Source: Promethearchaeota archaeon (GTDB lineage Archaea > Asgardarchaeota > Lokiarchaeia > Sigyniarchaeales > SOKP01). Taken from it: a stretch of DNA of 23,841 nucleotides. Every line of letters starts with the position of its first letter. Positions within the stretch are counted from its first letter, which is position 1. Under the pieces are notes generated by a model. That model was not told the origin of the DNA, did no database searches, and worked only from the letters and a program-made list of their open reading frames with translations. Positions 6,544 to 23,612 of this stretch are shown here, in pieces. Both the position numbers and the translations under genes were made by a program. The stretch spans positions 1-23,841 of the forward strand of contig JBHLLT010000035.1 in assembly GCA_048938855.1 (NCBI GenBank), read 5' to 3'.

Positions 6544-7581
6544 TTACAAATTTACAAGACAATATTGAACAAATTGCATGGGATCATTAGCACATCCCCC
6601 TGAATCTAAACCACCCAATTGGTCTAATATTTTTTGAGGGATAACGTTATCTGCTAACCATAAATCTTTTAAATTCATTAAAGATTCTAATCCTTTTATA
6701 TGAATTATGCGATTTTGACTCAAATCGAGAGTTTCTAATTTCGTGAGGGGTTCTAGTCCCTTTATTTCCCCTATATTGTTTTCTGATAAAAAAAGATTCT
6801 CTAAATTAGTTAGATTATATAATCCCTTTATTTGGCTAATATTGTTTTGTTTTAAATTTAGAATTCTCAAATCTTTACAATTATCTAACCTTCGAATTTC
6901 CGATATTTGATTAGAATTTAACCAAAGGGTCTCTAAATTCTCCAGGTTCTCTAATCCTTGAATTTTTTGAATTTGGTTATTATTTATATAAAGACTCTTT
7001 AATTTTTTTAAATGTTCTAATCCATCAATACTTTTAATTTGGTTTCCTCCAAGATTTAATACTTCTAAATTTTCCAAATTTTCAAGATTTTTTATTTGTT
7101 CTATTTGATTTCCCATAATCCAAAGAACTTCTAGATTTGATAATTCTTCAAGACCTTTTATTTCTGAAATGGAATTCCATGAAATATCTAATCTCTTTAA
7201 TGATTTTAAGCCAATTAAACCTTTAATTTCTGTTATTTGGTTACCTCTTAAATACAATTCTTCTAAATTATTGAGTTGTTCTAATCCTGTTATTTCTGTT
7301 ATTTGATTACTTACTAAATGTAAAATCTTTAAATTTCTTAGATTTTCTAAACCCTTAATTTGTTTTATTAGATTACTCCCCAAGTTTAAAATTTCTAACT
7401 CATTTAATTCTTCAAGACCTTTCATATGCACAATTTCGTTTGAGCTTAGTTCTAAATTCTTTAAATCTTTTAATTTTGATAATCCGATTATCTCATCAAT
7501 ATCTTTTATTTCCAAAAGCCCTAAATCAAGGAATCCGTTTCTTACATCGAATCTCGTACCCGCTACTTCTACAAACTTCAT
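6544..7581 (-). CDS. Leucine-rich repeat protein, SDS22-like 22-aa repeats
   Basis: 12-13 tandem repeats of LxxLxxLxLxxNxIxxIxGLxx. Confidence 0.95.
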   Translation of the reverse strand: MKFVEVAGTRFDVRNGFLDLGLLEIKDIDEIIGLSKLKDLKNLELSSNEIVHMKGLEELNELEILNLGSNLIKQIKGLENLRNLKILHLVSNQITEITGLEQLNNLEELYLRGNQITEIKGLIGLKSLKRLDISWNSISEIKGLEELSNLEVLWIMGNQIEQIKNLENLENLEVLNLGGNQIKSIDGLEHLKKLKSLYINNNQIQKIQGLENLENLETLWLNSNQISEIRRLDNCKDLRILNLKQNNISQIKGLYNLTNLENLFLSENNIGEIKGLEPLTKLETLDLSQNRIIHIKGLESLMNLKDLWLADNVIPQKILDQLGGLDSGGCANDPMQFVQYCLVNL

Positions 7582-8730: not shown

Positions 8731-9366
8731 ATGAAAAAATCTTCAAAATTGATACTATTAACAACTTTGGGAATCTTAGTTTTTGGTTTTTTTCCGATAG
8801 CTTGCGCAGAACCGGGCAAATGGCCCGCATACTTATTTAAAAGACCCGGCTATCTCCCAGGTACTGGTGGTTATCATATTGGTGCTTGGTATTACCCTTT
8901 TATTGGTCCTGGAGGTCATTGGGAGATTCCAGCAGGGGAATATGCTTTCTTCAGATCAGGATGGCTTGTTTCAGATTATGAAATAGAATCAGGATTGGAT
9001 CCTGGCCCACCTTATCAAATGAACCTCTTCGTAGATGACGAAGAAATCACTATGCAGCGATGGACGTGGGTTATTCCAAAAGATACTGTTTTATACCCAG
9101 ACGGCGTGTGGCGAGATACTAAAACCCGTGCGTGGATGTGGGTTGTCAGATTTGATCCAGGATATTTTGAAGCGGGTAAAAGTTATAAAATTACATATCA
9201 ATTCCTAGTTCATGGACAATATTTCGGGAGCGATACTATAGGTTGGCGATTTTACGTTAATCACATGACAGGAGGAGGAATTCCTCCTGCAGACTTTACT
9301 TGGGAAGACTGGTATGGTCCAGCAGGCGAAATAAATAATAATTTCCACTGGCTAGATGTGGTTTGA
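8731..9366 (+). CDS. Secreted hypothetical protein (W/P/G-rich)
   Basis: Signal peptide MKKSSK-hydrophobic-ACA; GAGGT SD; visibly more GC-rich than its flanks. Confidence 0.8.
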   Translation: MKKSSKLILLTTLGILVFGFFPIACAEPGKWPAYLFKRPGYLPGTGGYHIGAWYYPFIGPGGHWEIPAGEYAFFRSGWLVSDYEIESGLDPGPPYQMNLFVDDEEITMQRWTWVIPKDTVLYPDGVWRDTKTRAWMWVVRFDPGYFEAGKSYKITYQFLVHGQYFGSDTIGWRFYVNHMTGGGIPPADFTWEDWYGPAGEINNNFHWLDVV

Positions 9367-9410
9367 TCAAGTAGTTTGAAGAATTAAGATTATCTACTTT
9401 TAATTTATAT

Positions 9411-9502
9411 ATATAGAAAATGGAGGAAAAGATTAAGAAAAACCGCTTCTCGATTGATCACACCTAACGTAATTTTCTTCCAATCTCTATATCTTTTTTT
9501 TT
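9411..9502 (+). repeat. Conserved ~90-nt hairpin element, copy 1, followed by a T-tract (terminator or structured RNA)
   Basis: ATATAGA/TCTATAT and TGGAGGAAAA/TTTTCTTCCA stems; core CTTCTCGATTGATCACACCTAA (9446-9467) matches 20141-20162 at 19/22 positions. Confidence 0.7.
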
Positions 9503-9692
9503 AAGACTTTTTAATCATCAGACAAATCTTAACTTGAGAAAGTATACAAAAAAGTAGTAACTATTATAAACATTTCAATCTAAATTTATTTTATACATCA
9601 GCTAAATTCAAAAATTGATATTTCCCTTAAAATCTAAATTTTTATGAAAATTTTAGGTTAAAAGCCAAAATATATTAAAATAATATTGAGGG

Positions 9693-11441
9693 TTGGTTAT
9701 GGTTGAGAAGGATATTAAGTACAAAAAGAAAAGAAAAATTTTTAAAACGTTAAATAAAAAACAAAAAATCGGTTTGGGAACTACAAGTGCCATAGCAGTA
9801 GCTGCTATTTTTAGTGGGGTTTACTTTTTTTTTGTACTACAAGAAAAACCAGAGTTCATTTTTAAGTGCGGCTTAGCGGATGGTCCCGATTCTATTGATC
9901 CACTTAAAAATCCCGTTCCAACAAATGAGAATCTGATAATATTAGATCAAATTGCAGAAGGTTTATTCGCTTATGATCAAAATAAAACAGATACACCTGT
10001 AGTTCCGAACTTGGCATTAAATGGGACTTGGAGCCCAGATCACTTAAATTTCACTTGTATATTAAGAACGAATGTTACTTTCCATGATGGAACACCTTTT
10101 AATGCCCCTGCGGTTAAGTGGAACTTCGAGAGAATTTATAGATTTATTGAAACTATGCCCAATGATCAAATATGGGCTTGGGAATCTGCATATCTAACTT
10201 CAAAAAGAGAACCAATTATCAACCATACTGAAATAATTGATAATTATACCATAAAATTTGTGTTAAACCAACCTTATGTTCCTATAAGAGAATTATTAGC
10301 CCTTTGGAACTCTTATATACTTTCGCCAACTTCTACGCCCGAAGATGATTTTATCGATATTAGAACAGGAAGATTAGTTGGAACAGGACCTTTCATTCTC
10401 GATAACTGTGAGGTAAATTATTGGGGAGAAAGTACAGAAACCCAAATGCATGCTAATCCAGATTATTGGGATGGAGTGCCATCAATTAATAAAGTAGTTT
10501 TCCTAGATTTGGGAGATTCAGAAAGAATAGAAAGAATGCTATCTGGAGATCTTTCATATATTTGGGGGAATCGTGATAATGACACACTTGATAATTTTAA
10601 ATCAAATCCAGAATTTAGGGTATTGCCGAAAAAAATGATGAGTTTATGGTATTTTGGAATGAATAACAAAATTATAAATCTTACAATGAGAAAAGCAATC
10701 TCATACGCTTTTAATTATAATCATTATCTTAAAGAAGTGTGGGGAGGGCACGCAGAGAAGGCAAAATCGCCTCTTGCAAAGCAAATGCGATATTCTAACT
10801 GGGAAGATTTTAATGTACCCTATTATAATATTACACGAGCAAGACAAATTTTACTAAATGCAAATTGGCCTGGTACAGCCGGTTTAACAGCTAACGATAA
10901 TATTTCGGCTGGAAATGAATGGGAATCATTGGCAAATAGCCCCTCCCCTCTAGGAATATATAATTTTTCAGTTAGTAACTCATTTATGGAATTAGCAGCT
11001 AATCTAGCTATTGAAGATCTTAAACAAATAGGATTGAAAGTAAACTTAAATTCAATGGGATCTTTAGTATTAGAGCATAAATTGAATGAGGGGGAATTTA
11101 ATATTGTGACTCTAGGATGGGGAGTCGTTTCTAATGACCCTGTCGATGTTATTAATCCATTATATTCAAGTAAACTTGATGGAATAGGAAATTATTGGAA
11201 TTTTAATGATACGCAGATACAACAATGGATGGAGGATGCTCTTCAAGAGTTCAATGAATCTACTAGAGAGCAATTATACTTTAATATTCAGCAGCTTCTT
11301 ATTGAAGAACTCAATCCAGTTGTTTGCCTGGCTAATCCTATAAGATATGATATTTGGGATTCAGATGTAAAGGGGATTCCAATTGATGGTGCTCCTTTAA
11401 GATTCATCCTAAAATATGCATATCTAAATGATTCATCTTAA
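9693..11441 (+). CDS. ABC transporter substrate-binding protein, family 5 (OppA/DppA-like), membrane anchored
   Basis: EGLF, PNLA..W, LR.NVTFHDGTPFNA.AVKWNFER, VGTGPF, NPDYW, MRKAISYAFN motifs; N-terminal TM. Likely start is ATG at 9699. No permease or ATPase genes adjacent. Confidence 0.93.
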   Translation: MVMVEKDIKYKKKRKIFKTLNKKQKIGLGTTSAIAVAAIFSGVYFFFVLQEKPEFIFKCGLADGPDSIDPLKNPVPTNENLIILDQIAEGLFAYDQNKTDTPVVPNLALNGTWSPDHLNFTCILRTNVTFHDGTPFNAPAVKWNFERIYRFIETMPNDQIWAWESAYLTSKREPIINHTEIIDNYTIKFVLNQPYVPIRELLALWNSYILSPTSTPEDDFIDIRTGRLVGTGPFILDNCEVNYWGESTETQMHANPDYWDGVPSINKVVFLDLGDSERIERMLSGDLSYIWGNRDNDTLDNFKSNPEFRVLPKKMMSLWYFGMNNKIINLTMRKAISYAFNYNHYLKEVWGGHAEKAKSPLAKQMRYSNWEDFNVPYYNITRARQILLNANWPGTAGLTANDNISAGNEWESLANSPSPLGIYNFSVSNSFMELAANLAIEDLKQIGLKVNLNSMGSLVLEHKLNEGEFNIVTLGWGVVSNDPVDVINPLYSSKLDGIGNYWNFNDTQIQQWMEDALQEFNESTREQLYFNIQQLLIEELNPVVCLANPIRYDIWDSDVKGIPIDGAPLRFILKYAYLNDSS

Positions 11442-12448
11442 GTTGGGATACTATAGAGATCCCACAGATAATTGCCCCCATCCCATTTAAAGAAAGAGAA
11501 ATTATAGTTATTTTGAGTGGGATAATCTGTGGAATTATAATATTGTCCAATATCTGGTGGAATTATATCCCTGTCGAATCCATCCCATGAATTTTCTGGT
11601 TCATGACCATGGCTTGTTGCATTATAAAATACAAATCGAGCTCCAATATCGGGAGAAAAATCTTTATAAATTACGGTGATATTCCCAGTTTTTGTGATTC
11701 CCATCCCAGTAATATTAGCCCCCATTTCAGAATATTGGATAATCTCAAATAAAATATACCCAACTTTATTTTTGAGAGTCAAAAGACTATTATGAGTATA
11801 TTTGTTATTTTTAGTTATTAATGTTGCATTTCCATCATTTACAGTTCCAGATATATTCCCTCCCACCTCACAATTAATAAATTCATAAATTATATCACCG
11901 TTAATTACATTTAAGAGTAAATTGCTTACAGTAATTCCCAATGCAGAGAAATTTATAGCTCCTTCGCTTACAAAAGCATTTATGCTAAAAACAATATCAG
12001 CCCTTAGCTGAATATTAATCTTAATATTTGCTATGTGTAAGTTGGAAAATTCTACTAACTTGTCAAAAATTAATACCATTGTGAAATTTAATGGTGATGT
12101 CAAGTTTTCCCAGCCTATACTAAAGAAATCCAAATATGATTTACTTCTTAAATTAGGACCTGCCATTTCAATATCTACGTCTATCTTGACGAGATAATCT
12201 ACAGATGGAGGAACGTATTTTATATCAATAATACCTACATCAGTAACTAAATTCAATTCTTTGTTAATAGGTGGGGCCTCTGTTCTATATTTATATGTGA
12301 GAGACTTATTAATTTTGCTAAAGTGCGCAAATTCAGAAAAAATAACTAATGTAGGAATACTTATAATAGAAAAAACGAAGATTATGTATATTATAATAAG
12401 TATTGCTTTATAATTTCGCTCCATCTTAAATAAGTGAAACAAGTCCAA
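11438..12448 (-). CDS. Membrane-anchored DUF4097-like beta-solenoid protein (paralog of 3055..4152)
   Basis: Shared blocks with 3055..4152: DFF.I.WEN, LR.D..(Y/F), QY.EMGANITG, IGA.F. Likely start is ATG at 12424. Convergent 4-nt overlap with the SBP gene. Confidence 0.7.
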   Translation of the reverse strand: MDLFHLFKMERNYKAILIIIYIIFVFSIISIPTLVIFSEFAHFSKINKSLTYKYRTEAPPINKELNLVTDVGIIDIKYVPPSVDYLVKIDVDIEMAGPNLRSKSYLDFFSIGWENLTSPLNFTMVLIFDKLVEFSNLHIANIKINIQLRADIVFSINAFVSEGAINFSALGITVSNLLLNVINGDIIYEFINCEVGGNISGTVNDGNATLITKNNKYTHNSLLTLKNKVGYILFEIIQYSEMGANITGMGITKTGNITVIYKDFSPDIGARFVFYNATSHGHEPENSWDGFDRDIIPPDIGQYYNSTDYPTQNNYNFSFFKWDGGNYLWDLYSIPT

Positions 12449-12606
12449 TTGCTTTAAGTAATTAGATAAGATAGATTAATATTTAAATTATTTACTAAAT
12501 ATTTTTCAATTATATATTTAGATCTAATTTACTAGAAAATTCATAATTTATTAATATTGAAATTCCCTAATAGTTATTTATTAAATACCTCAACCACGCA
12601 AATATT

Positions 12607-13599
12607 ATGGTTTTTGATCCAATAGAACGTTTTTTTTCAAGTATGGCTATTTTTATGCTAGCTCTCTGCAGTATTTTATATTTCTCTAAAGGATTGAAGA
12701 AAAAGGATAAAAATGAAAAATTTTTATTAGTAGGATTTGGTGTATTCTGGTTTATTATCGCGGTAACACGATCCTTCTTTTTTATTGTCGATTACATTCT
12801 AGAAGGGATATATACCGGAGATTTGAATATAATAATCCTGACCTACGATGTTACTAATTATATTATTTTATATTTTTACTTATATCTGTATGGTTATGTA
12901 TTTTTTAGTACTACAGTTGTAACATTATTTTTTATTAGATCCTCATTGAAATCGGATCGTGAATTTCAAATTATTTCTTCAGTCATAACCTTTGGATTAG
13001 TACTTTTCTTAATTGGATGGAGCTCAGAATTGATTCTTATAAAATATTTAAACCTTTTTTCTCCTAGTTTAGGACCAGTTTTTATTCTCTTAGGAGGCTT
13101 TATTGCTACATCTCCACAAATTGGGCATTTCGAATTATTTTCAAAAAAAATCATTAAACCAATTATTTTGATTATGATATGTTTACTAGTTGTATTTGTG
13201 ATTTCAATGTTATTCATTAATCTTCAATTAGTAGATTTATTTTTAATTATAATTTGGATTGGTCTTCTTACAATAATTTTTATTGCGGGTTATTTAATTT
13301 ACTTTTATAGTAGAAGAGGAGAACCGGCTGTTGAGAAAGATGATCTCCAAGATACTTTAAGAGTTTTTAGTAAGCCTTTACATTTTAGCATAGAAGATGT
13401 TAAATATAGCAGGGATAAAGGGTTCTGTTTAGTATGTAAAAATAAGATTTCAGGATTAAGCTATATTTGTCCAAACTGTGAAGCATGGTACTGTTTAAAA
13501 TGTCGTGATGCTTTAATTGAGATAGAAAATTCATGTTGGGGCTGTGAAACTCCATTTATAGAGAGTAAATCTAAAAAAATGTTCAAAAGATCTAAATAA
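12607..13599 (+). CDS. Polytopic (~7 TM) membrane protein with C-terminal C4C4 RING-type zinc finger; candidate E3 ligase
   Basis: About seven hydrophobic segments followed by CLVC-x10-CPNC-x4-CLKC-x10-CWGC. Confidence 0.75.
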   Translation: MVFDPIERFFSSMAIFMLALCSILYFSKGLKKKDKNEKFLLVGFGVFWFIIAVTRSFFFIVDYILEGIYTGDLNIIILTYDVTNYIILYFYLYLYGYVFFSTTVVTLFFIRSSLKSDREFQIISSVITFGLVLFLIGWSSELILIKYLNLFSPSLGPVFILLGGFIATSPQIGHFELFSKKIIKPIILIMICLLVVFVISMLFINLQLVDLFLIIIWIGLLTIIFIAGYLIYFYSRRGEPAVEKDDLQDTLRVFSKPLHFSIEDVKYSRDKGFCLVCKNKISGLSYICPNCEAWYCLKCRDALIEIENSCWGCETPFIESKSKKMFKRSK

Positions 13600-13622
13600 T
13601 CAAATATAAAAAGGTGAGTTAA

Positions 13623-13811
13623 ATGATAGAATTTATATTTCTAATTCTAATTATTTCATTAGTAATTACCTTTATTGTTTCAATCTTAATATCGATATGG
13701 GTGTACATTGATGCTAAAAGCAGAGAATTGAATGTTTTCTTATGGATTCTAATCGTGTGGGTAATTCCATTTTCATTAGGAATAATATTATATCTAAAAG
13801 GAAGAGAATAA
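13623..13811 (+). CDS. Small 2-TM membrane protein (PLDc_N-like)
   Basis: WVYIDAKSR....LWILIV..IP..LG.ILYL pattern; AGGTGAG SD upstream. Confidence 0.75.
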   Translation: MIEFIFLILIISLVITFIVSILISIWVYIDAKSRELNVFLWILIVWVIPFSLGIILYLKGRE

Positions 13812-13904
13812 CAAATTAATACAACACTAATATCTTTTTTAACATTAATATCTATAATAAAATTAATTATTGATTTTAAAAAAGTAATTATCTCTGGTGT
13901 AAAA

Positions 13905-14945
13905 TTGATTCCTGTTCAAATTATATTAACCGGAGAAAAGGGTGTAGGAAAGCATACAATATTGAATTTATTCCCAGAGGAAACTATTTTAGAAATTGAT
14001 TTAAATTTAAATGAATTTCCAAAAAAATCTATTGATCTAACTAAATTAGGAAATATCGACCAATGTATCTTACGAATTATTGATTTAGAAGATTTGATTG
14101 ATAAATTTGATTCTTTCAAAGATTTATTAGATTCTACTGACATAATTTGTTTTGTTTTAAATTCCGTTATAAATGATATAGAAAATAATCAAAAAATATT
14201 ATCAAATTTAAAAGAAAAAGTCTCAGATGTTAGTTTTTATATAATTGCTAATTTTCAGGATAAAGAAGAATTAGCATTAGATGTGAATAAAATAGAAGCA
14301 ATATTAAAAGAGAAGACTTTTGGATTTTCTGCCATTCAACATGCTTCTAAAGAAAGAATATTTTCGATTATCGACGAAATTGTAAGAATGACAATTGAAG
14401 GAAAAGATGAAAAAAAGCACAAATTTACAAAATACGATGATTTATGGTTAGAACTTGAAAAAGCAAGAGTATTTGAAACAGAAGGAGACAGAATTAAAGC
14501 GATAGCAAAATTTTCAAATGTAGCATCTCAGATCAAAAACCTCTCTTTAGTGATGGAATTAGAAAATGAACGAGAAGAGCTTGAAGCATTACATTATTTA
14601 TGCAAAGCATGGGAATGTATGATATATGCAGAAGAATATCAGGAACCATTGAAATTTTCAGAAGCAATGAATCATTTTGTTCAAGCAAGCGAAATTATTG
14701 ATGACAATAAGCTAAAGCAAGTATTATTAGGAGATTCAGAATTTTGTAAAATTCTAAAGTTTGGTATGGAATTCGAGCATTCAAATCAAACTAGAATTAG
14801 GACTAATGATTATTTGAAAATTAAAGAATTTTTTAATAAAATAATGGAGTTATATAAACAAGGGAGTTTTGAAAAAGGTGTAAATTGGGCTTTAGCTAAA
14901 GCTTCTTATTTTGATGAATTTGTTAAGGAATTTAAAAAAGATTGA
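13905..14945 (+). CDS. Degenerate small-GTPase-like (Ras/Arf fold) domain plus helical TPR-like C-terminus
   Basis: G1 GEKGVGKH (no S/T), G3 region IIDLED (no DxxG), G4 NFQD, G5 FSA. TTG start with GGTG upstream. Confidence 0.75.
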   Translation: MIPVQIILTGEKGVGKHTILNLFPEETILEIDLNLNEFPKKSIDLTKLGNIDQCILRIIDLEDLIDKFDSFKDLLDSTDIICFVLNSVINDIENNQKILSNLKEKVSDVSFYIIANFQDKEELALDVNKIEAILKEKTFGFSAIQHASKERIFSIIDEIVRMTIEGKDEKKHKFTKYDDLWLELEKARVFETEGDRIKAIAKFSNVASQIKNLSLVMELENEREELEALHYLCKAWECMIYAEEYQEPLKFSEAMNHFVQASEIIDDNKLKQVLLGDSEFCKILKFGMEFEHSNQTRIRTNDYLKIKEFFNKIMELYKQGSFEKGVNWALAKASYFDEFVKEFKKD

Positions 14946-14950
14946 ATAAT

Positions 14951-15205
14951 TTACCCCCCTATTACTTTCGCCCATAATTCGAGTTTTTCATTTTCTTTTA
15001 AACCATAATTTTTAATTACATCTCCAATTGTAATCGTGTTAGGTAATTCTTTTCCTTTATAAATTAAAGCAAAAGAACGTTGTTCAGAAGTTATGATATT
15101 CATATGCTTAACCACAATAGTTATAATACTTTCTACTAAATGCCTTTCATTGACATCTAATTTAATTATTTTACCTCCTCGCGTATCTTCAACAGAGACT
15201 ATCAT
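14951..15205 (-). CDS. Ubiquitin-like protein with C-terminal Gly-Gly
   Basis: 84 aa beta-grasp size; LIYKGKEL resembles ubiquitin LIFAGKQL; YGLKENEKLEL; ends VIGG-stop. Confidence 0.9.
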   Translation of the reverse strand: MIVSVEDTRGGKIIKLDVNERHLVESIITIVVKHMNIITSEQRSFALIYKGKELPNTITIGDVIKNYGLKENEKLELWAKVIGG

Positions 15206-15300
15206 ATTATTATAATATTTTTTTGATTAATTCAAGATATTAGTAAAATAATAGTACCCACATTATAATTATTGTTAAGTAAATAATTACATGCTAAGCA

Positions 15301-15344
15301 TTTTTAGATTTAACTTCGGAAGATTTTATAAAGTCCGAAGTGTA
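15301..15344 (-). promoter_or_regulatory. 44-nt palindromic operator/promoter, copy A (upstream of the Ubl gene)
   Basis: Minus strand reads TACACTTCGGACTTTATAAAATCTTCCGAAGTTAAATCTAAAAA, a perfect CTTCGGA-N13-TCCGAAG; ~95 nt before the Ubl ATG. Confidence 0.75.
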
Positions 15345-15420
15345 GGAAACTTTGAAGAATTTCTAATATTAATTTCAAAATTTAATTAAGTTCATAAAAT
15401 AAAAAAAAGAATTTAGTTTT

Positions 15421-16086
15421 TTATTTTTTGATTTTTCTCTTTTCAACTATAATAATTGAGACTATGACTGTAGCACTAATTAATAAAAAGTAACTAAATC
15501 CTGGTACACTTGGGACTCCAGCACTTACAAGTTCATATGTATGATAATCCGTAGAATATTTACTAGTACCATTAACGAGAAATCCTCTCTGTTTTTCATA
15601 CCATACTTCACTCCCAAAACTATCCTTTAAAATCCAACAATCCATCGTATCATGCATTCCTTCACCAGTAACGTTGAATATAGTGTCAGCATTACCTGTA
15701 TGAACCCACTTCCAAATATTACACATTATAATTGAATCATCTATGGAAATGTCAGTGTGAATCCAAAAGCAATCATGAGTATCATTGAATACTCCGAAGT
15801 TCTGGTTATTTGATGCAATCCTAGTACTGGTGTTAGAATCCCAAAACCCCACATCATTAATAGGAGTTCCCAATCTCCATGTTATATGCATAATCTCACT
15901 CGATCTTCGAGTGAATATAAGTGTGCTTTTATGGGTTGGCATCACGCTAGAACTAAGGTTATGAACAACCTGCAATCCATTAGGTATACTAACTACATTG
16001 GAATGTCCAATCATCAGAAAATTGGAAAACAATATTGAACACATAATGAGCGACAAAAAGCCTTTTATTGCATTTGATCTTTTCAT
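15421..16086 (-). CDS. Secreted cell-surface protein with VPGF-TM-basic C-terminal sorting signal (Loki-CTERM/PGF-CTERM-like)
   Basis: Signal peptide; C-terminus VPGFSYFLL..TM..KRKIKK; paralog of 17810..18466. Confidence 0.85.
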   Translation of the reverse strand: MKRSNAIKGFLSLIMCSILFSNFLMIGHSNVVSIPNGLQVVHNLSSSVMPTHKSTLIFTRRSSEIMHITWRLGTPINDVGFWDSNTSTRIASNNQNFGVFNDTHDCFWIHTDISIDDSIIMCNIWKWVHTGNADTIFNVTGEGMHDTMDCWILKDSFGSEVWYEKQRGFLVNGTSKYSTDYHTYELVSAGVPSVPGFSYFLLISATVIVSIIIVEKRKIKK

Positions 16087-16140
16087 AATAATTTCAACCT
16101 CAATTTTATTTAGATCCTAGATAAATATATCATCATGTTA

Positions 16141-16184
16141 TTTTTAGATTTAACTTCGGAATCTTGTAAAAAGCGCGAATTAAG
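16141..16184 (-). promoter_or_regulatory. 44-nt operator/promoter, copy B
   Basis: Minus strand reads CTTAATTCGCGCTTTTTACAAGATTCCGAAGTTAAATCTAAAAA; ~55 nt before the ATG at 16086. Confidence 0.75.
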
Positions 16185-16190
16185 TTTTTA

Positions 16191-17519
16191 TTATTTGTTC
16201 CATCTTTTCTCTAATTCATCTAGGATAGTATATTTTGGAAAATCTTTCAAGAGAGATGACACAAATCCTTTCTTTAATACTATTTCCTTATAATCATCCC
16301 AATCAAAATTTATTATATTTTGATAAACCATACCTTTGAACGTATCTATAACATTGTTAGAAAAATCTTTTCTCTTAAAATCTGTATATAAATATTTGAT
16401 ATATTTAATGAGAAATTTCCCTATGAAGAGCTTCGCTTTTTGATCAAATAATTTATTGCTTATATCTTCTACAATATTTTCGATTAAACTTATTGTTTGT
16501 AAACTTTTCTCTTCTTCTGGAATACTTAGTTGCAGTTTTTGAAGAAAACTAAATTTCATTATGTTTTCATTTATGATTAAGTTTAACATCTTCTCAAATC
16601 TTCCGTTCACTCTGAAATAATAATTTCGATTTCCATCAAAACTTAAATTAAAGAATTCTGATTCATACAAATTCTCTTCCACTATTTTCTGTATAAAAAA
16701 ATTGAGTGTGTTTAATTTAATATCAAATTTGGACGAAAAATTCTCATGAGTTATGAAGTCTGGATACATAGTTGGATGATTAATACAAAGAAATAGAAGA
16801 ATCTTATAAAATTCTCGTTTAGAAGATAATAAACTTTCAGCTTTTGAATAATCCAGATGATTTATTAAATCTAAAAAGATAACCTTGACTTCATCATTAT
16901 CAATTTCATACTTTTCAAGAAAATTCTTTGCTTGTTCTTTAATATCCTCAAGTCTTTTGATTTCTTCGTTTAAAATTTTCTGATAATCTAAACCATATTT
17001 TTTTAATACATTTGAATACTCTGATTCACCAGTTTTAGCCAATCGATATTTATTATCATCTTTTTTAATATATCCTTTTTCTAATAAACGATTTATGTTT
17101 TTTGAAAGAGAATTATTATTGATCAACAGTGGTTTTTCAAGAAAATCTTTCCAAGTGCAAAATTCATTATTATATAACATCCAGAGAATTATATGATCAT
17201 AATTTCGTTTATTTAGGATTAATTCAGGAGGATATCTTAATTTTCTATCGAAAGAGTCTTTAAATCTTAGATCAAAATATCTTTTTCTCCCTTCTGATGT
17301 AATCATATAAAGGCCTTTCTCTTTTTTTTCCACATATCCATTAGTCATTAATAGATTCATATATTTTGATAATGTTGCCAGACTAAATGCTAATGGCTCC
17401 TCTAAAAAGTCGGACCAATTGCATTCCTCATTATTATTTAGCATCCACAAGATAATATATTCAAAATCTTTTTTTTCAATCCCTACTGGGCATATGATCT
17501 CTTGTGGTGGATAATTCAA
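16191..17519 (-). CDS. Putative transcriptional regulator with tandem winged-HTH domains
   Basis: Two homologous N-terminal units (YPP..I......(F/Y)..IILWML.NNE.C.W.DFLE.PL......LSK..N.L...GY..K....Y.....G) with MarR/wHTH character. Confidence 0.75.
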   Translation of the reverse strand: MNYPPQEIICPVGIEKKDFEYIILWMLNNNEECNWSDFLEEPLAFSLATLSKYMNLLMTNGYVEKKEKGLYMITSEGRKRYFDLRFKDSFDRKLRYPPELILNKRNYDHIILWMLYNNEFCTWKDFLEKPLLINNNSLSKNINRLLEKGYIKKDDNKYRLAKTGESEYSNVLKKYGLDYQKILNEEIKRLEDIKEQAKNFLEKYEIDNDEVKVIFLDLINHLDYSKAESLLSSKREFYKILLFLCINHPTMYPDFITHENFSSKFDIKLNTLNFFIQKIVEENLYESEFFNLSFDGNRNYYFRVNGRFEKMLNLIINENIMKFSFLQKLQLSIPEEEKSLQTISLIENIVEDISNKLFDQKAKLFIGKFLIKYIKYLYTDFKRKDFSNNVIDTFKGMVYQNIINFDWDDYKEIVLKKGFVSSLLKDFPKYTILDELEKRWNK

Positions 17520-17706
17520 TCTCTTAGCACTAATCCTTCAAAAACACCTTGGTACTCTTATTCTCTTGGATTACTATTTTAATATATTATCAATTTTTCT
17601 TGAAATACTTATTTAAAAATATGCTACATCAGTTTATATTTCTTTTTTAAAAAACGGGTATATAATTATATTTCTATATATCCTAATTTTTTTTAATGAT
17701 ATTCAA

Positions 17707-17750
17707 TAAACTTCGGACTTTTTCTAATCTTTCGAAGCTTAATCTAAAAA
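17707..17750 (+). promoter_or_regulatory. 44-nt operator/promoter, copy C (divergent intergenic region)
   Basis: TAAACTTCGGACTTTTTCTAATCTTTCGAAGCTTAATCTAAAAA; ~60 nt before the ATG at 17810. Confidence 0.8.
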
Positions 17751-17809
17751 TGTATAGGGAGAGTAAATAATATTTAACAATAATTTTAAATAAAAAAGGT
17801 TTTACAAAA

Positions 17810-18466
17810 ATGAAAAAAAGTTGGTCAATAAGAATCTTTTTGTTTATCATTATTTCTTCGATCTTCTCTTCAAATTTTTTAGCTTTTGGATATTCTAATG
17901 AAGTGGGAATAATTGATGGCTTGATCGTTAATCACATCTATAGATACTATTCTGTTGCTGAAGATGTCCCTTCAAAACTTACTTTCAAAAAAAATCCGAA
18001 TCAAATGTTTCATATTAAGTGGTATTTTGGGGGTTCATGGAATGTGGGAGGATTTTGGGATGTCAATACCAGCACGAGAATCGTATCAAATCAGCAGAGT
18101 CCTGGACCAGATAATGGAGATCATGATCATTCATGGATTTGGACGGATGTTTCGCTGGATGATCAAATTTTAATATTTAATTTCTTCTCAAACGTAGACC
18201 ACGTCTTCAATGTGACAGGTGAAGCGATGCATGGCTCAATGGCAGTATGGATACTAGAAGACAACTATGGGAGTGAAGCGTGGTATGAAAAGGAACGAGG
18301 ATTTCTCGTTAATGGTACATTTAAATATAGTTCAAGCTGGCAAAAATACTCTTTTGTAAGTGTAACTGTTGATCCAGGAATTCCGGGATATAACTATTTT
18401 CTACTATTTGGAGCAATTTTAGGATGTGGAATTATTTTAATTAAATATAGACAAAGAAAGAAATAA
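17810..18466 (+). CDS. Secreted cell-surface protein with IPGY-TM-basic C-terminal sorting signal (paralog of 15421..16086)
   Basis: Signal peptide; shared blocks GFWD.NTSTRI.SN, FNVTGE.MH, GSE.WYEK.RGFLVNGT.KYS; C-terminus IPGYNYFLL..TM..RQRKK. Confidence 0.85.
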   Translation: MKKSWSIRIFLFIIISSIFSSNFLAFGYSNEVGIIDGLIVNHIYRYYSVAEDVPSKLTFKKNPNQMFHIKWYFGGSWNVGGFWDVNTSTRIVSNQQSPGPDNGDHDHSWIWTDVSLDDQILIFNFFSNVDHVFNVTGEAMHGSMAVWILEDNYGSEAWYEKERGFLVNGTFKYSSSWQKYSFVSVTVDPGIPGYNYFLLFGAILGCGIILIKYRQRKK

Positions 18467-18480
18467 TGTTTTATAAATAT

Positions 18481-18527
18481 AAAAAATAGTGCCATTAAAA
18501 GCGCTTTAATTCTATTTTTTTTTTTTT
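18481..18527 (+). terminator. Hairpin plus T13 terminator after 17810..18466
   Basis: AAAAAATAG/CTATTTTTT outer stem, ATTAAA/TTTAAT inner stem, T-run at 18515-18527. Confidence 0.55.
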
Positions 18528-18575
18528 GAAATTGAAGTTTATATTATTGAACAGTCATCTTAAGCATTAAAGGAT

Positions 18576-18619
18576 TAAACTTCGAGCTTTTCCTAATCTT
18601 CCGAAGCTAAATCTAAAAA
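18576..18619 (+). promoter_or_regulatory. 44-nt operator/promoter, copy D
   Basis: TAAACTTCGAGCTTTTCCTAATCTTCCGAAGCTAAATCTAAAAA; ~60 nt before the ATG at 18681. Confidence 0.8.
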
Positions 18620-18680
18620 TAAAATAGTGAGATACATAACAATAACCTTAATATAACATAAAGAGGTTGGAAAAATAAAA

Positions 18681-20015
18681 ATGAAAATGAAAAGAAAATC
18701 AAGTATATTATTCGGAATTTTAACATTTACAATGATATTCACAATGTTTACTCTGACAATAGGACCCGTACTCGCTGATTCACCTACATTTGTTGTGTCT
18801 CCATCAGGAGGAGATGATACAGCAAACATTCAAGACGCATTTGATGCAGCAATTGCAGCAGGTCCTGGAAGCACAGTTCAGTTAACTTCGGGACAATTTT
18901 ATACTAATGAAATTATAGTTGAAAATTTTTATGGTACATTTAAGGGGACAGGCAAGGATCTTACTAAAATTGATGTCCTTAGAGGATTAGATCCTGGAGC
19001 GCCAGGAGTTTCCACTTTTATGGGTAGTCCTCATATATTTTCATTCGTAGGAGGAGATGTGCTTATCTTAGATATAAGCTTTGATATTACTCCTTATGAA
19101 CCTGCTGAACAATGGGGGCCACCACCTCCCGATGGTTGGTGGTACGATTTATTATCAGTTATTTTAATAGCTGGAGATATAAATTCTCAAATTGAAGATA
19201 TTAAATTTAAAGGTCATGAAGGGACAGCACTCTATGATCCCTGGCATCCTCTCTTTTCTGTAAAAAGCTATAATGTCAGAGTAGGAGTTGAATACGGGGG
19301 CGGGTTACCTACAACTGGAAGACATGTAATTACTAATTGTGAATTTAACTCGCTATGGTTAGGTATTACTGCTTACGGGTTAATAGACTGTGAATTGGCA
19401 ATTAAATCAAACTTGATTCAAGGAGGGGCTATTGGAATAATTAATGCTGATAATGGTAATTCAAAATTTGAGATTTCTCATAATGATATTGAAGCAAATG
19501 CTTTTGCTGGTATATGGGTGATGCAATTTGCTCCATCTCCTTGCCAGTGGCTTATAACCCATAACATTATAAGACCATCAATAATGGCTGATGGTGTTTG
19601 CTTAGAAGATTATACAGGATTAGGATCACTCGATGCAGTTATCTCACATAATAAAATTATATGCGATACATTCTGGGGTGGAATTTGGACAACAATGGCT
19701 CAGGACGCTCTTGTCATTAACAACATTATTTTTGGTACAGTAGATTATGGTATAGCATGTTATTATGCCTATAACACTCTACTGCTTGGTAATAATGTTC
19801 AAAACGTTGATGCCTCTTGGGCTCACATTGTCTTGCTTTGGTCGAGTGAATGTGTAGTTGTCGGAGGTTCAACAAAAACAAATGTGTTAGACGTCGGTGG
19901 TTACAACAATATCATAGTTGGGATGAATAATATGCAAGGTAACTCCCCTGGTCCAGAAATACAAGAAGCATTGGAACAGAAGATGGAACTTCTTAAATCT
20001 TTTCCTAAGTTTTAA
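18681..20015 (+). CDS. Secreted right-handed parallel beta-helix (pectin-lyase-like/NosD-like) protein
   Basis: Signal peptide; GDDTANIQDAFD...GSTVQL..G.FY cap motif; repeated I.(H/N)N.I....GI units; more GC-rich than its flanks. Confidence 0.85.
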   Translation: MKMKRKSSILFGILTFTMIFTMFTLTIGPVLADSPTFVVSPSGGDDTANIQDAFDAAIAAGPGSTVQLTSGQFYTNEIIVENFYGTFKGTGKDLTKIDVLRGLDPGAPGVSTFMGSPHIFSFVGGDVLILDISFDITPYEPAEQWGPPPPDGWWYDLLSVILIAGDINSQIEDIKFKGHEGTALYDPWHPLFSVKSYNVRVGVEYGGGLPTTGRHVITNCEFNSLWLGITAYGLIDCELAIKSNLIQGGAIGIINADNGNSKFEISHNDIEANAFAGIWVMQFAPSPCQWLITHNIIRPSIMADGVCLEDYTGLGSLDAVISHNKIICDTFWGGIWTTMAQDALVINNIIFGTVDYGIACYYAYNTLLLGNNVQNVDASWAHIVLLWSSECVVVGGSTKTNVLDVGGYNNIIVGMNNMQGNSPGPEIQEALEQKMELLKSFPKF

Positions 20016-20106
20016 TAAGTTACTTGGATCCTATCGAGAATAATTCGTAAAAATCATTCAATATAAGAAAGGGAGATATAACAGAGGGTTGAAATTCTTA
20101 ATCAAA

Positions 20107-20196
20107 ATATAGAATTGGAGGCTTTAATTTAGGAATACGTCTTTTCGAATGACCACACCTAAAGCACTACACCTCCATTCTATATATCTTTTTTTT
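20107..20196 (+). repeat. Conserved ~90-nt hairpin element, copy 2, followed by a T-tract
   Basis: ATATAGAATTGGAGG/CCTCCATTCTATAT outer stem, TTTAGG/CCTAAA inner stem; core CTTTTCGAATGACCACACCTAA. Confidence 0.7.
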
Positions 20197-20277
20197 AAAA
20201 AAACTTTTATTTCTTAAGGTTTTGTTCATAAATTATTTTCCTACCACCGAAAACTATAAAAAAACAAGCGTACAGTA

Positions 20278-20410
20278 CAACGCTCTTATACTTTCGTATA
20301 TAATAATCAAGAATTACCTAATAAGATTACAATCGCGGATGTGATCCATAAATACGGTTTAAAAGAAGAAAAAAAACTAATTTTATGGACAAGAGTTATA
20401 GGAGGTTTAG
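20278..20410 (+). pseudogene. 5'-truncated second ubiquitin-like gene
   Basis: Translates QRSYTFVYNNQELPNKITIADVIHKYGLKEEKKLILWTRVIGG, 27/43 identical without gaps to the C-terminal half of 14951..15205. In-frame TAA at 20257 upstream with no 5' start; ends GGA GGT TTAG, the stop displaced by one extra T. Confidence 0.85.
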
Positions 20411-20424
20411 AAAATTTAATTTTT

Positions 20425-20991
20425 TTAATCATCTTTTATTATGATAATACCATCATTTTCTTCTTTTTCTGATTCCTTATCATTCTCCTCAGATGCGTAT
20501 TGCTTCTTAAGTTCTTCAATTTTTTGTTTTTTAAAGAATTTTGTAGCTTCAAAACATTCAGGATAATCAAGTGGATCGTCAGGATTAGGATTTTCTACTA
20601 AAATTTTCAATGCCCTAATTGTAGTTACCAAATCGGATAATCGAGACCACTTCTTTAATATATTTAAGCAAATATATCCTGTTCCTGATTCATTTGATAA
20701 AGACAATTCGACTGGATGTATATTAGGATGAAAAATATTCGAAAGCCATGAAAAATCAATACCACCAGGATAAGGAAATGAACGATTAATTTTTAAATAT
20801 ATACGATGTGTCCTTTTTGGCTTTAAATTACCATTTTCCTTAACAAAACCTAATGCTTTTATGTTTAATATTAAATCGACACCATTACTATCCATTTTTA
20901 TTGAGTTTTCTTCAAGAACATCTAACTTTTTTACATTATTTAGTTCATTATCAATTCTATCTTTCCATATCTCATAAGGAAGCTCTGGCAT
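20425..20991 (-). CDS. Ubiquitin-conjugating enzyme E2 (UBC fold)
   Basis: FPYP, IFHPNI (HPN motif), GYICLNIL..W catalytic Cys, L.NPNPDDPL; acidic tail. Confidence 0.92.
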   Translation of the reverse strand: MPELPYEIWKDRIDNELNNVKKLDVLEENSIKMDSNGVDLILNIKALGFVKENGNLKPKRTHRIYLKINRSFPYPGGIDFSWLSNIFHPNIHPVELSLSNESGTGYICLNILKKWSRLSDLVTTIRALKILVENPNPDDPLDYPECFEATKFFKKQKIEELKKQYASEENDKESEKEENDGIIIIKDD

Positions 20992-21015
20992 AATTATTCA
21001 CACCTTTTTTTCCTT

Positions 21016-21897
21016 TTAATTTTTTTTAAAAGAACATGTCCAGCATTCTGGATTTTTTAATTTCTTAATTATTTCAAATTTATTTAAAAGTCCATTATAA
21101 TTTAATTGTTTTCCTATTAATGGTTGACCGATGGTAGGATTCCACTTCTTTTTTTCTTTAAAATATTCAATTCCTAATATGAATTTTAACACTTGTTGAG
21201 ATTGTAATCCACCAATGATAGATGTGGTTGTTATAATAGCAGGGATTATTCCTAAAGTTTCACCATCTTCATTTTCTATTTCTTGTCCAGTGCAGGAGAA
21301 CTTTTTCCACATCAATTCTAGATCCATATCAGAAACATTACACTGGAGACAAGCAGCATCTTCTACTCCTGAATAAACTGACTGAACTGTACCAAAAAAT
21401 TCCTCAATTCCAGCATCCACAAATGGTTTTTCGTAATAAAATGCATAATTATTGGCTTCTAATCTTGCTTCAATATTATCTACACATGAGCAAATAATAT
21501 CAGACTCTTTATATAATGCTTTATCAATATCATTTAAGTCTTCTTTAATTGCTAGAATCTCTACATTTGGATTTAATTTTTTACATGCACTTTTTACAAC
21601 ATCAACTTTATATTCTTTCTTCTTTGCTTGTTCTGCGTTGAAAAGAATGCAGCGATTCAAGTTTGAAGGATTAATAACATCATAATCAATTAAAATTATT
21701 TTTCCCACACCAATTAATACAAGATTTTTTGCAACTTCGTTACCAATAGCTCCTGCTCCTATTACCATAATAGTTGAATTAGTAATTTTATTTTGGTTCC
21801 AACCTCTTATACGTTTTTGGCGATCAAAAATATCTGAATCTATAGATTCTTTCCCATTTACAGTGAAATCTTCAGGATCATCTTTTTTTCTTGACAT
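21016..21897 (-). CDS. Ubiquitin-activating enzyme E1 (ThiF/MoeB/UBA family)
   Basis: FDRQ, GAGAIG, DYD.I..SNLNR, CVDN..AR, Zn pairs CLQC and CWTC, candidate catalytic Cys in FSCTG. Confidence 0.93.
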   Translation of the reverse strand: MSRKKDDPEDFTVNGKESIDSDIFDRQKRIRGWNQNKITNSTIMVIGAGAIGNEVAKNLVLIGVGKIILIDYDVINPSNLNRCILFNAEQAKKKEYKVDVVKSACKKLNPNVEILAIKEDLNDIDKALYKESDIICSCVDNIEARLEANNYAFYYEKPFVDAGIEEFFGTVQSVYSGVEDAACLQCNVSDMDLELMWKKFSCTGQEIENEDGETLGIIPAIITTTSIIGGLQSQQVLKFILGIEYFKEKKKWNPTIGQPLIGKQLNYNGLLNKFEIIKKLKNPECWTCSFKKN

Positions 21898-21913
21898 ATT
21901 TTCGATTTATCTA

Positions 21914-22402
21914 TTATTTTTTTAATACTGCATAACTCAATGATTTATATCCTTTTTTTATATTATTATCAATCGTAAAAAATTCAAATTCATTTTGGAT
22001 GGGATCTACAACGAGAGCAACTTGATTTTCTTCGGGAAAAAAATATTTTTGAGTTACTAAATCTGTAGGAGATAAAAAACATCCGAGGTTTGGATGAGAA
22101 TGCCACCATCCTACAATTCTCAAATTTTCATTATTTTTTATCTTTTTAATTCTCTGAAATTTTTTCTGATATAATCCGGCAGTACCTTCTATTTGAGATG
22201 TGTAAGTTTTATCACTATAAACTGCTCCAATTAGAAATAGTGAATCCTCTATAATAGTATATATTTGATCATTCCATTTTAAGAAACTGCCTATTAGATA
22301 TCCAAAAATCTCTTGTTCTGAACTTTTGCAGAAATTTTTAATTTCTTCAATTGTTTCTTCATAGATGTAAATTGGAAAAACAAAATCTTCTTGCAATTTC
22401 AT
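21914..22402 (-). CDS. JAB/MPN+ (JAMM) metallo-isopeptidase, Rpn11-like
   Basis: EIFGYLIG (Glu) and VGWWHSHPNLGCFLSPTD = HxH-x7-S-x2-D; VALVVDP. Confidence 0.93.
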   Translation of the reverse strand: MKLQEDFVFPIYIYEETIEEIKNFCKSSEQEIFGYLIGSFLKWNDQIYTIIEDSLFLIGAVYSDKTYTSQIEGTAGLYQKKFQRIKKIKNNENLRIVGWWHSHPNLGCFLSPTDLVTQKYFFPEENQVALVVDPIQNEFEFFTIDNNIKKGYKSLSYAVLKK

Positions 22403-22968
22403 TTTTTTTCTAAATTTAGGCTTAATTCTTTAAATTTTGTATTTAACATTTCATTAGATAAACTAACGGCTTTTTGGGTAATTTCATTCATATCGTCATC
22501 TAACTCAATTATTAATTCACCTGGAAATAAATCCATTATTTTTGTCTTCCCTACTCCTACTTCTCCAACTAAGAATATTTTAGGCGGAATATAAATATGT
22601 TCTTCTACAAATTCATCAAAACTCTCAAATTTAGAGATATCAGAATTCCAATTTATTAAGTCTTTTTTATATCTCTCTATGAACTCAATCATCATTAATT
22701 CTAATTTTTCTCTTATTTCTTCCTCTGGATCATTTATATCTGCAAGTAATATAAAAATGCAAAATTTTTCATCATCATAAGAATTTATAATATCCAAGTT
22801 TCTAAAATTTAAAGATCTTATTTCTCCTCCCCCAATTTCTTGAGATATATTATGGATAACCATAAAAAATCCACTCACAAAATCATCTTCAATTTTAGTA
22901 TGACCAAAAAATGTCTTTGAATAACAGAGAATCCCACCTGACAAAATGATTAGTACTTTAGAAATCAT
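22399..22968 (-). CDS. Longin-like domain protein with truncated C-terminal P-loop GTPase segment
   Basis: aa 1-125 longin-like (SGGILCYSK, VSGFF..I, EI.S.NF); aa 127-170 KIFLVGEVGVGKT; stops ~50 aa after the P-loop; ATGA overlap with the JAB gene. Confidence 0.78.
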   Translation of the reverse strand: MISKVLIILSGGILCYSKTFFGHTKIEDDFVSGFFMVIHNISQEIGGGEIRSLNFRNLDIINSYDDEKFCIFILLADINDPEEEIREKLELMMIEFIERYKKDLINWNSDISKFESFDEFVEEHIYIPPKIFLVGEVGVGKTKIMDLFPGELIIELDDDMNEITQKAVSLSNEMLNTKFKELSLNLEKK

Positions 22969-23047
22969 CGGATATCTCGATTTTAAATCAATGAATAATT
23001 AATTTAATAATAGAGTGAGTGATTATTTAAAATAACCTCTTTGACTA

Positions 23048-23245
23048 ATGAAATCTTATTTAAACCTTAAAAAAAGTGGCTTAATTTTGAAAAAACAAAA
23101 GGATGATTTACAATTTCAAGATTCACACCCTCGAATCTTAGAAATTGAGGATCAAGAAATTGAGGAAAAAAAGCCACCGATTGACAACATTGCCTATTAT
23201 AAAATCGTAAATGAAACTAAAGAGACAAAATTAGAGGAAAAATAA
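23048..23245 (+). CDS. Short hypothetical protein
   Basis: 65-aa ATG ORF, charged, not shadowing another gene; no motif recognised. Confidence 0.4.
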   Translation: MKSYLNLKKSGLILKKQKDDLQFQDSHPRILEIEDQEIEEKKPPIDNIAYYKIVNETKETKLEEK

Positions 23246-23612
23246 ATCTAATATATTTTAACAAGGAAATTCAAATTATGTTTCAATATCTTCCATTTCT
23301 GTTAGAAAAATGCCTGCAATTGTAATCCATTTCTCGTTATCATTACCTTCTTTTCCTTTTCTAAGGAATTTTATTAATTTCTTCTAAATATTTCCTATAT
23401 TGGTTGTCCTTACTTTCGATAGTATCAGTAAAAGATCTCGATTTTCGAGACTATCCTACTCTTTACTCTCAAACAATTCTTCTTGTTTGGTTTTTAATTG
23501 TAACCCAAATTATTTACATATATTAATTTTTTACAAAATAGTAAAAATTAAATAAGATGGAGATTTTGAAAAAAAGTGAGATCCAATTTAAATATTTGCA
23601 AGTGAAAAATAA

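Follow-up and report, generated by a model that had tools for sequence, protein, structure and literature searches.

How a lokiarchaeal genome came to carry ubiquitin-related genes in apparent mirror image around one regulator gene is the question raised by this locus. The window, the whole stretch of DNA analysed (23,841 nt), is one entire contig (C58) of the 3.95-Mb genome bin of a Promethearchaeota archaeon, labelled G000 below. On either side of a winged helix-turn-helix (wHTH) gene it holds a gene for a Loki-CTERM-like surface protein, a gene for a ubiquitin-like protein (Ubl) and a GTPase-like gene, together with 45-bp elements, and the original prediction attributed this to one old inverted duplication with the wHTH gene at its centre. 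Comparison with relatives points elsewhere: very probably, two distantly related units came to lie side by side, merged, and then lost genes reciprocally. Homologous pairs were sought by comparing the window with itself (tblastn and blastn); 54 genomes were compared for counts of the E2 gene, the 45-bp element and the short wHTH gene, and gene order was followed across about 45 loci.

The mirror and the deletions of the right arm

The genes, fragments and elements of the mirror all lie where they were first described, on the strands given, as window self-comparison and Pfam confirm, and the homology of the three paralogous pairs is far above chance. The two CTERM genes (15421-16086, minus; 17810-18466, plus) are 48% identical over 223 aa (E 1e-54), the left Ubl (14951-15205, minus) matches a right-hand fragment lacking an open reading frame (20278-20406, plus) at 63% over 43 aa (E 7e-16), and the left GTPase-like gene (13905-14945, plus) matches 22590-22456 (minus) at 49% over 45 aa (E 2e-9). 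Within the genome, the partners in the Ubl and CTERM pairs are each other's only close homologues. The supposed right-hand fragment of a GTPase-like gene is indeed homologous to the left gene over those 45 aa, but as a whole (22399-22968) it combines a longin domain with 45 aa of GTPase, whereas the left gene has no longin. Likewise, the four sites of the two proposed operator pairs stand in mirror order, yet the pair in mirror position next to the regulator, B-C, is the least alike of the six possible pairs (32/45 identities); A-D reaches 37/45 and the same-arm pair C-D 40/45, so that mirror position does not go with greatest likeness.

Gene trees do not make the pairs sisters. The Ubl, GTPase and CTERM copies group with orthologues from their own arm and not with each other; a tree that unites left with right Ubls from the nearest genomes is rejected (approximately unbiased (AU) test, p-AU 2e-14), as is one that unites the G000/G007 CTERM pairs (p 0.023) and, under a simple model, one that makes the whole GTPase clades sisters (p 0.015). 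The dS values are near saturation for all pairs, and the genes differ in evolutionary rate; the row comparing gene 11438 with G017, which was out of frame, was left aside. Judged from these trees, the left/right split is as old as the diversity of the system in the genus.

The sister genome G007 shows what the right arm has lost. The window aligns to it over 8800-19983, 20078-20198, 20270-22456 and 22425-23371, and between the hairpin and the Ubl G007 has 5.2 kb extra, which holds a Ras gene, a solute-binding protein (SBP) gene, a relative of the window gene at 11438, a seven-transmembrane (7-TM) gene, a small membrane gene and the 5' half of an intact Ubl. The locus L123 carries the same block and G017 carries it in changed order. 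Four genes of the G007 block are paralogues of left-flank genes, in direct and not inverted orientation. With primes marking the paralogues, the restored left order is SBP, 11438, 7-TM, small transmembrane (TM) gene, GTPase facing Ubl, wHTH, and the restored right order is Ras, SBP', 11438', 7-TM', small TM', Ubl facing E2-E1-JAB-GTPase, wHTH-TPR. An inverted duplication about the wHTH gene would have left the primed genes in reverse and beyond the right GTPase; in fact they lie inside the right arm and are direct, which argues against such an event. Full nesting about the axis fails too, as the four flank paralogues and the wHTH paralogue are direct in G007, G003 and L123. Rather, the mirrored look is confined to the Ubl and GTPase pairs because the units are direct but the block of GTPase-JAB-E1-E2 and Ubl is flipped in one of them. 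The right arm of the window reads as follows.

18681..20015, plus: secreted beta-helix protein, cassette cargo (PF13229, E 7e-10)
20100..20200, plus: stem-loop and T-run element, probably a terminator (no Rfam match)
20246..20270, plus: remnant of intergenic DNA upstream of the deleted SBP paralogue, fused to the Ubl fragment (nucleotide match 24/25 in G017 and 19/20 in G007 at that place)
20272..20409, plus: 3' half of the core-operon Ubl, a pseudogene with 5' half deleted and stop lost (89% to the intact G007 orthologue)
20425..20991, minus: E2, HPN motif and catalytic Cys intact (PF00179; dN/dS 0.14; single copy of its family)
21016..21897, minus: E1 of the ThiF family, intact (PF00899, E 2.5e-51; dN/dS 0.13)
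21914..22402, minus: JAB/JAMM protease, HxH motif intact (PF01398, E 1.4e-11; dN/dS 0.15)
22399..22968, minus: longin-GTPase that lost 330 bp internally, between short direct repeats, and kept its original 3' end (orthologues 291 aa)
23279..23374, minus: final 32 codons of the wHTH-TPR gene that in the right unit corresponds to the central regulator (78% to a 632-aa G007 protein, E 7e-11)

The deletions private to this genome comprise the block genes, the Ubl 5' half, 330 bp of the GTPase and most of the wHTH-TPR gene, and the 25-nt remnant at 20246-20270 implies that the block left in two deletions, of about 0.7 and 4.5 kb. The separate contigs L076, L116 and L118, which may share one study with the window, show identical truncation junctions at 99.99-100%; an assembly artefact as the source of the truncations is made unlikely by this repetition. 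The right Ubl fragment falls in a clade with G003, G007 and G017 (support 96/92) and shows five changes in 45 residues besides the lost stop, against one change between intact orthologues. The right unit is intact in G007, G017, G003, G059 (enzymes) and L123. Two causes given earlier for the truncations do not hold. The beta-helix gene is a bystander, as G007, G017 and L123 have it together with an intact right Ubl. JAB-E1-E2 did not cut the GTPase gene, since its 3' end is kept and its middle lost: the 189-aa longin-GTPase keeps its last codons and runs on into the JAB start, while in the orthologous loci of the closest relatives a full-length gene of 291 aa stands directly before JAB.

Across the genus the standard order is longin-GTPase, JAB, E1 and E2 facing the Ubl; E2 occurs in 43 of the 54 genomes, nearly always once, and the Ubls are multi-copy. 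Most of the genus has this right arm without the wHTH gene, the operators or the left arm. One old inverted duplication with complementary decay of both arms would account for the order and strand symmetry seen in this genome and for the roughly similar divergence of the pairs; the trees do not reject deep sisterhood for the Ubl clades, and loci with a single arm, as foreseen, do exist (L028 in G002 and L044 in G060, wHTH-operator-Ubl facing E2-E1-JAB-GTPase). The symmetry arises only after the 5.2-kb deletion, however, and the direct paralogues, the unlike mirror operators, the variable CTERM slots, the non-sister GTPase clades and the wide occurrence of the right arm alone all stand against it. 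The one-event story is thus mostly wrong, and its core, the single inverted duplication, is very unlikely. What did hold was the complementary loss of genes from the arms, the left unit lacking JAB-E1-E2 and the right unit its tag. Reciprocal gene loss is known to follow the duplication or merger of redundant pathways, when the units lose different members and one full set remains; here, unlike the general case, the copies are distant, xenologue-like versions and not products of one local event.

Besides these features, the stem-loop of about 95 nt with its T-run recurs after secreted-protein genes across the genus. Copies lie at 20100-20200 and 9411-9504 of the window and at four other places in the genome (three on C70, one on C55), and a search of Rfam gave no match for the hairpin or for the 45-bp element.

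The left unit and its probable exchange between species

Both arms would be versions of one accessory unit made of an SBP, an exported protein, a 7-TM RING-like protein, a small membrane protein, GTPase-JAB-E1-E2 facing a Ubl, and a wHTH gene. The right unit is probably the resident ubiquitin-like operon, and the left would belong to a lineage of cassettes passed from species to species, in which a short wHTH regulator gene has an outward-facing 45-bp element on each side. Its features are these.

9693..11441, plus: family-5 solute-binding protein (PF00496, E 4e-63; a 43%-identical paralogue is direct in the G007 right unit)
11438..12448, minus: exported protein with N-terminal hydrophobic segment (no Pfam match; paralogue in the right unit of relatives)
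12607..13599, plus: 7-TM protein with C-terminal four-CxxC, RING-like zinc finger (seven hydrophobic segments, four CxxC; C1/zinc-finger matches weak)
13623..13811, plus: 62-aa two-helix membrane protein, conserved in both units
13905..14945, plus: GTPase-like protein without longin, with degenerate G motifs and helical C-terminus (related to a 790-880-aa longin-GTPase-nitrilase form)
14951..15205, minus: cassette-type Ubl, intact, ending GG-stop (PF00240, E 0.0016; cassette clade 97/88)
15421..16086, minus: Loki-CTERM-like surface protein, left copy (NF033507, E 0.004, under the cut-off)

Aligned with a true Ras of the locus, the left GTPase-like protein lacks the Ras/Arf switch motifs (G1 GK[ST], G3 DxxG, G4 NKxD), with GKH at G1, no G3 glycine and NFQD at G4. 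In G002 and G060 the left unit is complete, with JAB-E1-E2 between GTPase and Ubl, and holds their only E2; their E1 lies in the opposite half of the E1 tree from that of G000. The redundancy after the merger would have been removed reciprocally, the left unit losing JAB-E1-E2 early and the right unit, later and only here, losing Ras, four flank genes, half of its Ubl, the middle of its GTPase and its wHTH-TPR gene.

The left-unit trees are congruent for SBP, 7-TM, GTPase, Ubl and wHTH, with the right-unit copies in separate clades. Cassette carriers are scattered on the RpoB tree, requiring seven state changes, and the wHTH DNA is more alike between some distant species than RpoB (G002/G010, 92.6 vs 83.4%; G014/G015b, 90.7 vs 81.4%), a transfer signal that rests on these nucleotide identities and the congruence tree, the tree with the G015b protein and its AU value being weak. 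These patterns, subject to binning error, point to horizontal exchange of the cassette between species. An ancient local tandem duplication in direct orientation, followed by inversion of the ubiquitin block, vertical descent and differential loss without transfer, would have occurred at a site marked by AlaX, a leucine-rich-repeat (LRR) gene and glutamate dehydrogenase (GDH). Both unit types do adjoin AlaX (left in G002, G060, G006, G013 and G015; right in G003, G057, G058 and G064), and G003 has no cassette and yet is nested among carriers, which indicates loss. The cassette trees nevertheless conflict with RpoB in the seven changes and in G013 not grouping with G002 and G060, and the regulators are near-identical in distant species; descent without transfer is therefore unlikely, though it deserves serious weight. 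G003 was also considered as the state before insertion, and its nesting among carriers on the RpoB tree turns it into a case of cassette loss. Between the sisters G000 and G007, identity drops to 59-61% for the left GTPase-like and CTERM proteins, against 84-85% for the enzymes, through either fast change or the swapping of alleles.

Several neighbouring observations complete this picture. In many relatives the variable region is anchored by the LRR-like gene (6544-7581, with 66-nt repeats in the window), AlaX (7776) and glutamate dehydrogenase (5182). Window genes 3055-4152 and 11438-12448 are paralogues in opposite orientation, 27% identical, and within them lies a 57-nt inverted match of 77% (3843-3899/11706-11762). 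The long longin-GTPase form at L035:5068-7710 has a C-terminal nitrilase (carbon-nitrogen hydrolase) domain (PF00795, E 5e-10). The left-arm layout arose a second time, independently, at L040:9952-12812 of G058, where JAB-E1-E2 is absent between an 861-aa longin-GTPase and the Ubl that it faces. A third Ubl clade is formed by L024:17290-17529 (G014, with three stops), L021:11468-11728 and L048:9884-10138; in G023 the unit has shrunk to SBP, Ras and Ubl beside AlaX.

The regulator, its elements and their cargo

The inner part of the mirror, which comprises the elements and the CTERM genes, is best explained as a regulatory layout in which each element heads one cargo gene, and in which units of element plus gene are gained or lost independently on either side of the regulator.

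16191..17519, minus: regulator of 442 aa with three predicted winged-helix domains, a short form that lacks the TPR tail seen in 630-aa paralogues (Pfam wHTH; model mean pLDDT 86)
15300..15344, minus: putative operator/promoter element A, a 45-bp site heading the Ubl
16140..16184, minus: putative operator/promoter element B, a 45-bp site 7 nt after the wHTH stop
17707..17751, plus: putative operator/promoter element C, a 45-bp site 188 nt upstream of the wHTH gene and divergent from it
18576..18620, plus: putative operator/promoter element D, a 45-bp site
17810..18466, plus: Loki-CTERM-like surface protein, right copy (48% to the left copy)

The 44 copies of the element share TTCG-N17-CGAA and a near-invariant AATCTAAAAAT block, and all except one head a gene on the same strand (14 Ubl, 15 CTERM, 8 beta-helix and 6 others with hydrophobic N-termini), mostly 45-130 nt before the start codon. 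Cassette loci place one element after the wHTH stop and one divergently upstream. A profile built from the four sites found no fifth in the 3.95-Mb genome. The element occurs in 15 of the 54 genomes and the short wHTH gene in 14; all 14 have the element, the fifteenth lies at a contig edge, and neither is found in the other 39. By comparison, TPR-type wHTH paralogues occur in all 24 genus genomes searched. Triple-wHTH proteins with TPR or longer tails (630-1050 aa) reach 2-10 copies per genome in the genus and were seen in only 1 of 16 other genomes of the order searched.

The cargo slots vary among relatives. A CTERM gene stands on the Ubl side only in G013, on the other side only in G017, G016, G006 and G059, and on both in G000, G007 and G011; it is missing from the left slot in G017, G016, G006 and G059, and a beta-helix or other secreted gene fills the right slot in G013, G017, G016, G002 and G060. 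The CTERM pair itself scores 17.3-17.4 bits against an NCBIfam cut-off of 19.9, and has hydrophobic segments at both termini; the ESM Atlas gave no family for the CTERM protein. The weak Loki-CTERM matches, together with the taxa of the closest Atlas clusters, place the genome in Promethearchaeota/Lokiarchaeia.

That units come and go between direct element copies could also mean that the elements are recombination sites of an integron-like array, and an orphan element with no gene behind it (L019:7799-7843, G011) stands where a core Ubl is missing. No recombinase was recognised, though, among the locus genes scanned, where fold searches gave winged-helix regulators only and part of the model was barely covered. 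The regulator models as three winged-helix domains with helical linkers, the first two matching MarR/PadR-type folds (Z about 10); Foldseek with the model gave no match at E<=0.001. As the spacing before start codons is promoter-like and ordinary recombination between repeats would suffice, an integron-like role is highly improbable. In the favoured account of the elements as operators, the wHTH protein would bind TTCG-N17-CGAA and co-regulate the tag and the surface proteins. MarR/PadR-type factors can govern local regulons with divergent promoters, the regulator being flanked by inverted-repeat sites that head its neighbours. The present locus departs from this pattern: one chain holds three winged-helix domains, the second block of the 45-bp element hardly varies, the surface-protein cargo is variable, and a ubiquitin-like gene is included. 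In a literature coverage that was incomplete, no described regulon of this kind was found for the group, nor a paper on this cassette or element.

One enzyme set and its probable tag

Of the tags of this family in the genome, only the left Ubl is intact, so that the left arm did keep the whole copy, and one enzyme set probably serves this operator-driven tag. The GG-ended tag would be charged by the right E1 and E2, delivered with the 7-TM zinc-finger protein, a candidate ligase, and removed by JAB. GG-stop endings occur in 9 of 14 element-led Ubls, and extensions in all 37 core-clade Ubls. In G011, on a separate branch, the core Ubl and GTPase were lost and E2-E1-JAB kept, a parallel loss.

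Alternatively, JAB-E1-E2 might simply be the next genes to decay, the left Ubl not being their substrate. The right unit has four deletions at its flanks and within it, dN/dS is still low in the pseudogenised tag, which makes the decay recent, and G057 shows a unit losing E1 and E2. Yet the deletions all spare the three enzymes, here and in G011, and each of these two genomes has one E2 of the family, while G057 has other intact copies. The enzymes are under purifying selection (dN/dS 0.13-0.15), and the left Ubl, strongly conserved (dN/dS 0.10 vs G007), has no other cognate E1, as it does not align with the ubiquitin on C49. Impending decay of the enzymes is thus rather improbable. With more reserve than for the merger itself, it is tentatively proposed that the exchanged cassette is an inducible plug-in Ubl module, in which a GG-stop tag, a dedicated transcription factor, swappable surface proteins and a membrane RING-like neighbour use the host's single E1/E2/JAB set, and which replaced the resident tag twice independently. 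The tag would be induced along with the surface proteins, perhaps so that membrane or surface proteins are remodelled on the arrival of an outside substrate.

Some points weigh against this account of merger, exchange and shared enzymes. Holding the two whole Ubl clades together is not rejected (p 0.33), nor are the wider CTERM clades as sisters (p 0.12); an ancient duplication in the genus therefore underlies the homology, and it could be local. Either orientation of the flipped block could be the ancestral one. The genomes are bins with 3-9% contamination, and some transfer signals could stem from mis-binning. The co-occurrence of element and regulator is not independent, as they are physically linked. 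Part of the low dN/dS of the enzymes goes back to the period preceding the loss of the tag (the fragment still has 0.09). Lastly, the genome holds a second, unrelated Ub-E1-E2-JAB cluster on C49.

That cluster (C49:126764-132122) reads JAB-E2-E1-ubiquitin with three ubiquitin-domain genes, and another ubiquitin, of 110 aa and with the same N-terminus, lies at C66:49007-49339. In the unit at L042:9908-10807 of G057 the Ubl is intact and its 3' end is duplicated in tandem, but E2 is broken and E1 missing; the genome has two other copies of the system.

Among known systems, the Ub-E1-E2-small RING-Rpn11 clusters of Caldiarchaeum subterraneum and Asgard archaea likewise group a di-glycine Ubl, a ThiF-type E1, an E2 with catalytic Cys and a JAMM protease, with pro-forms bearing C-terminal extensions as in the core-type Ubls here (PMC5654768). 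The enzymes of this locus would work like the Caldiarchaeum cascade (PMC5654768). The locus differs in that no small soluble RING gene is adjacent to the operon (the 7-TM four-CxxC protein sits in the left unit), the Ubl faces the operon, the partners include a longin-pseudo-GTPase and the 7-TM zinc-finger protein, and the tag belongs to one unit and the enzymes to another, 5 kb apart, the tag behind a regulator-linked element. As in Asgard ubiquitin-ESCRT regions, the lokiarchaeal ubiquitin genes lie in a discrete region (PMC9192718); unlike in those, no ESCRT gene is near, and another ubiquitin cluster stands on C49.

The mirror itself, as a by-product of deletion, is of little weight; what endures is the finding of a second tag that is mobile and linked to a regulator. 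Two genomes act as natural knockouts and so predict the tag that the little-studied lokiarchaeal enzymes accept, and the sharply defined element, with its 44 aligned copies, offers a pair of regulator and site that is open to test. Given the swapping of units between species, such ubiquitin loci need not trace vertical ancestry.

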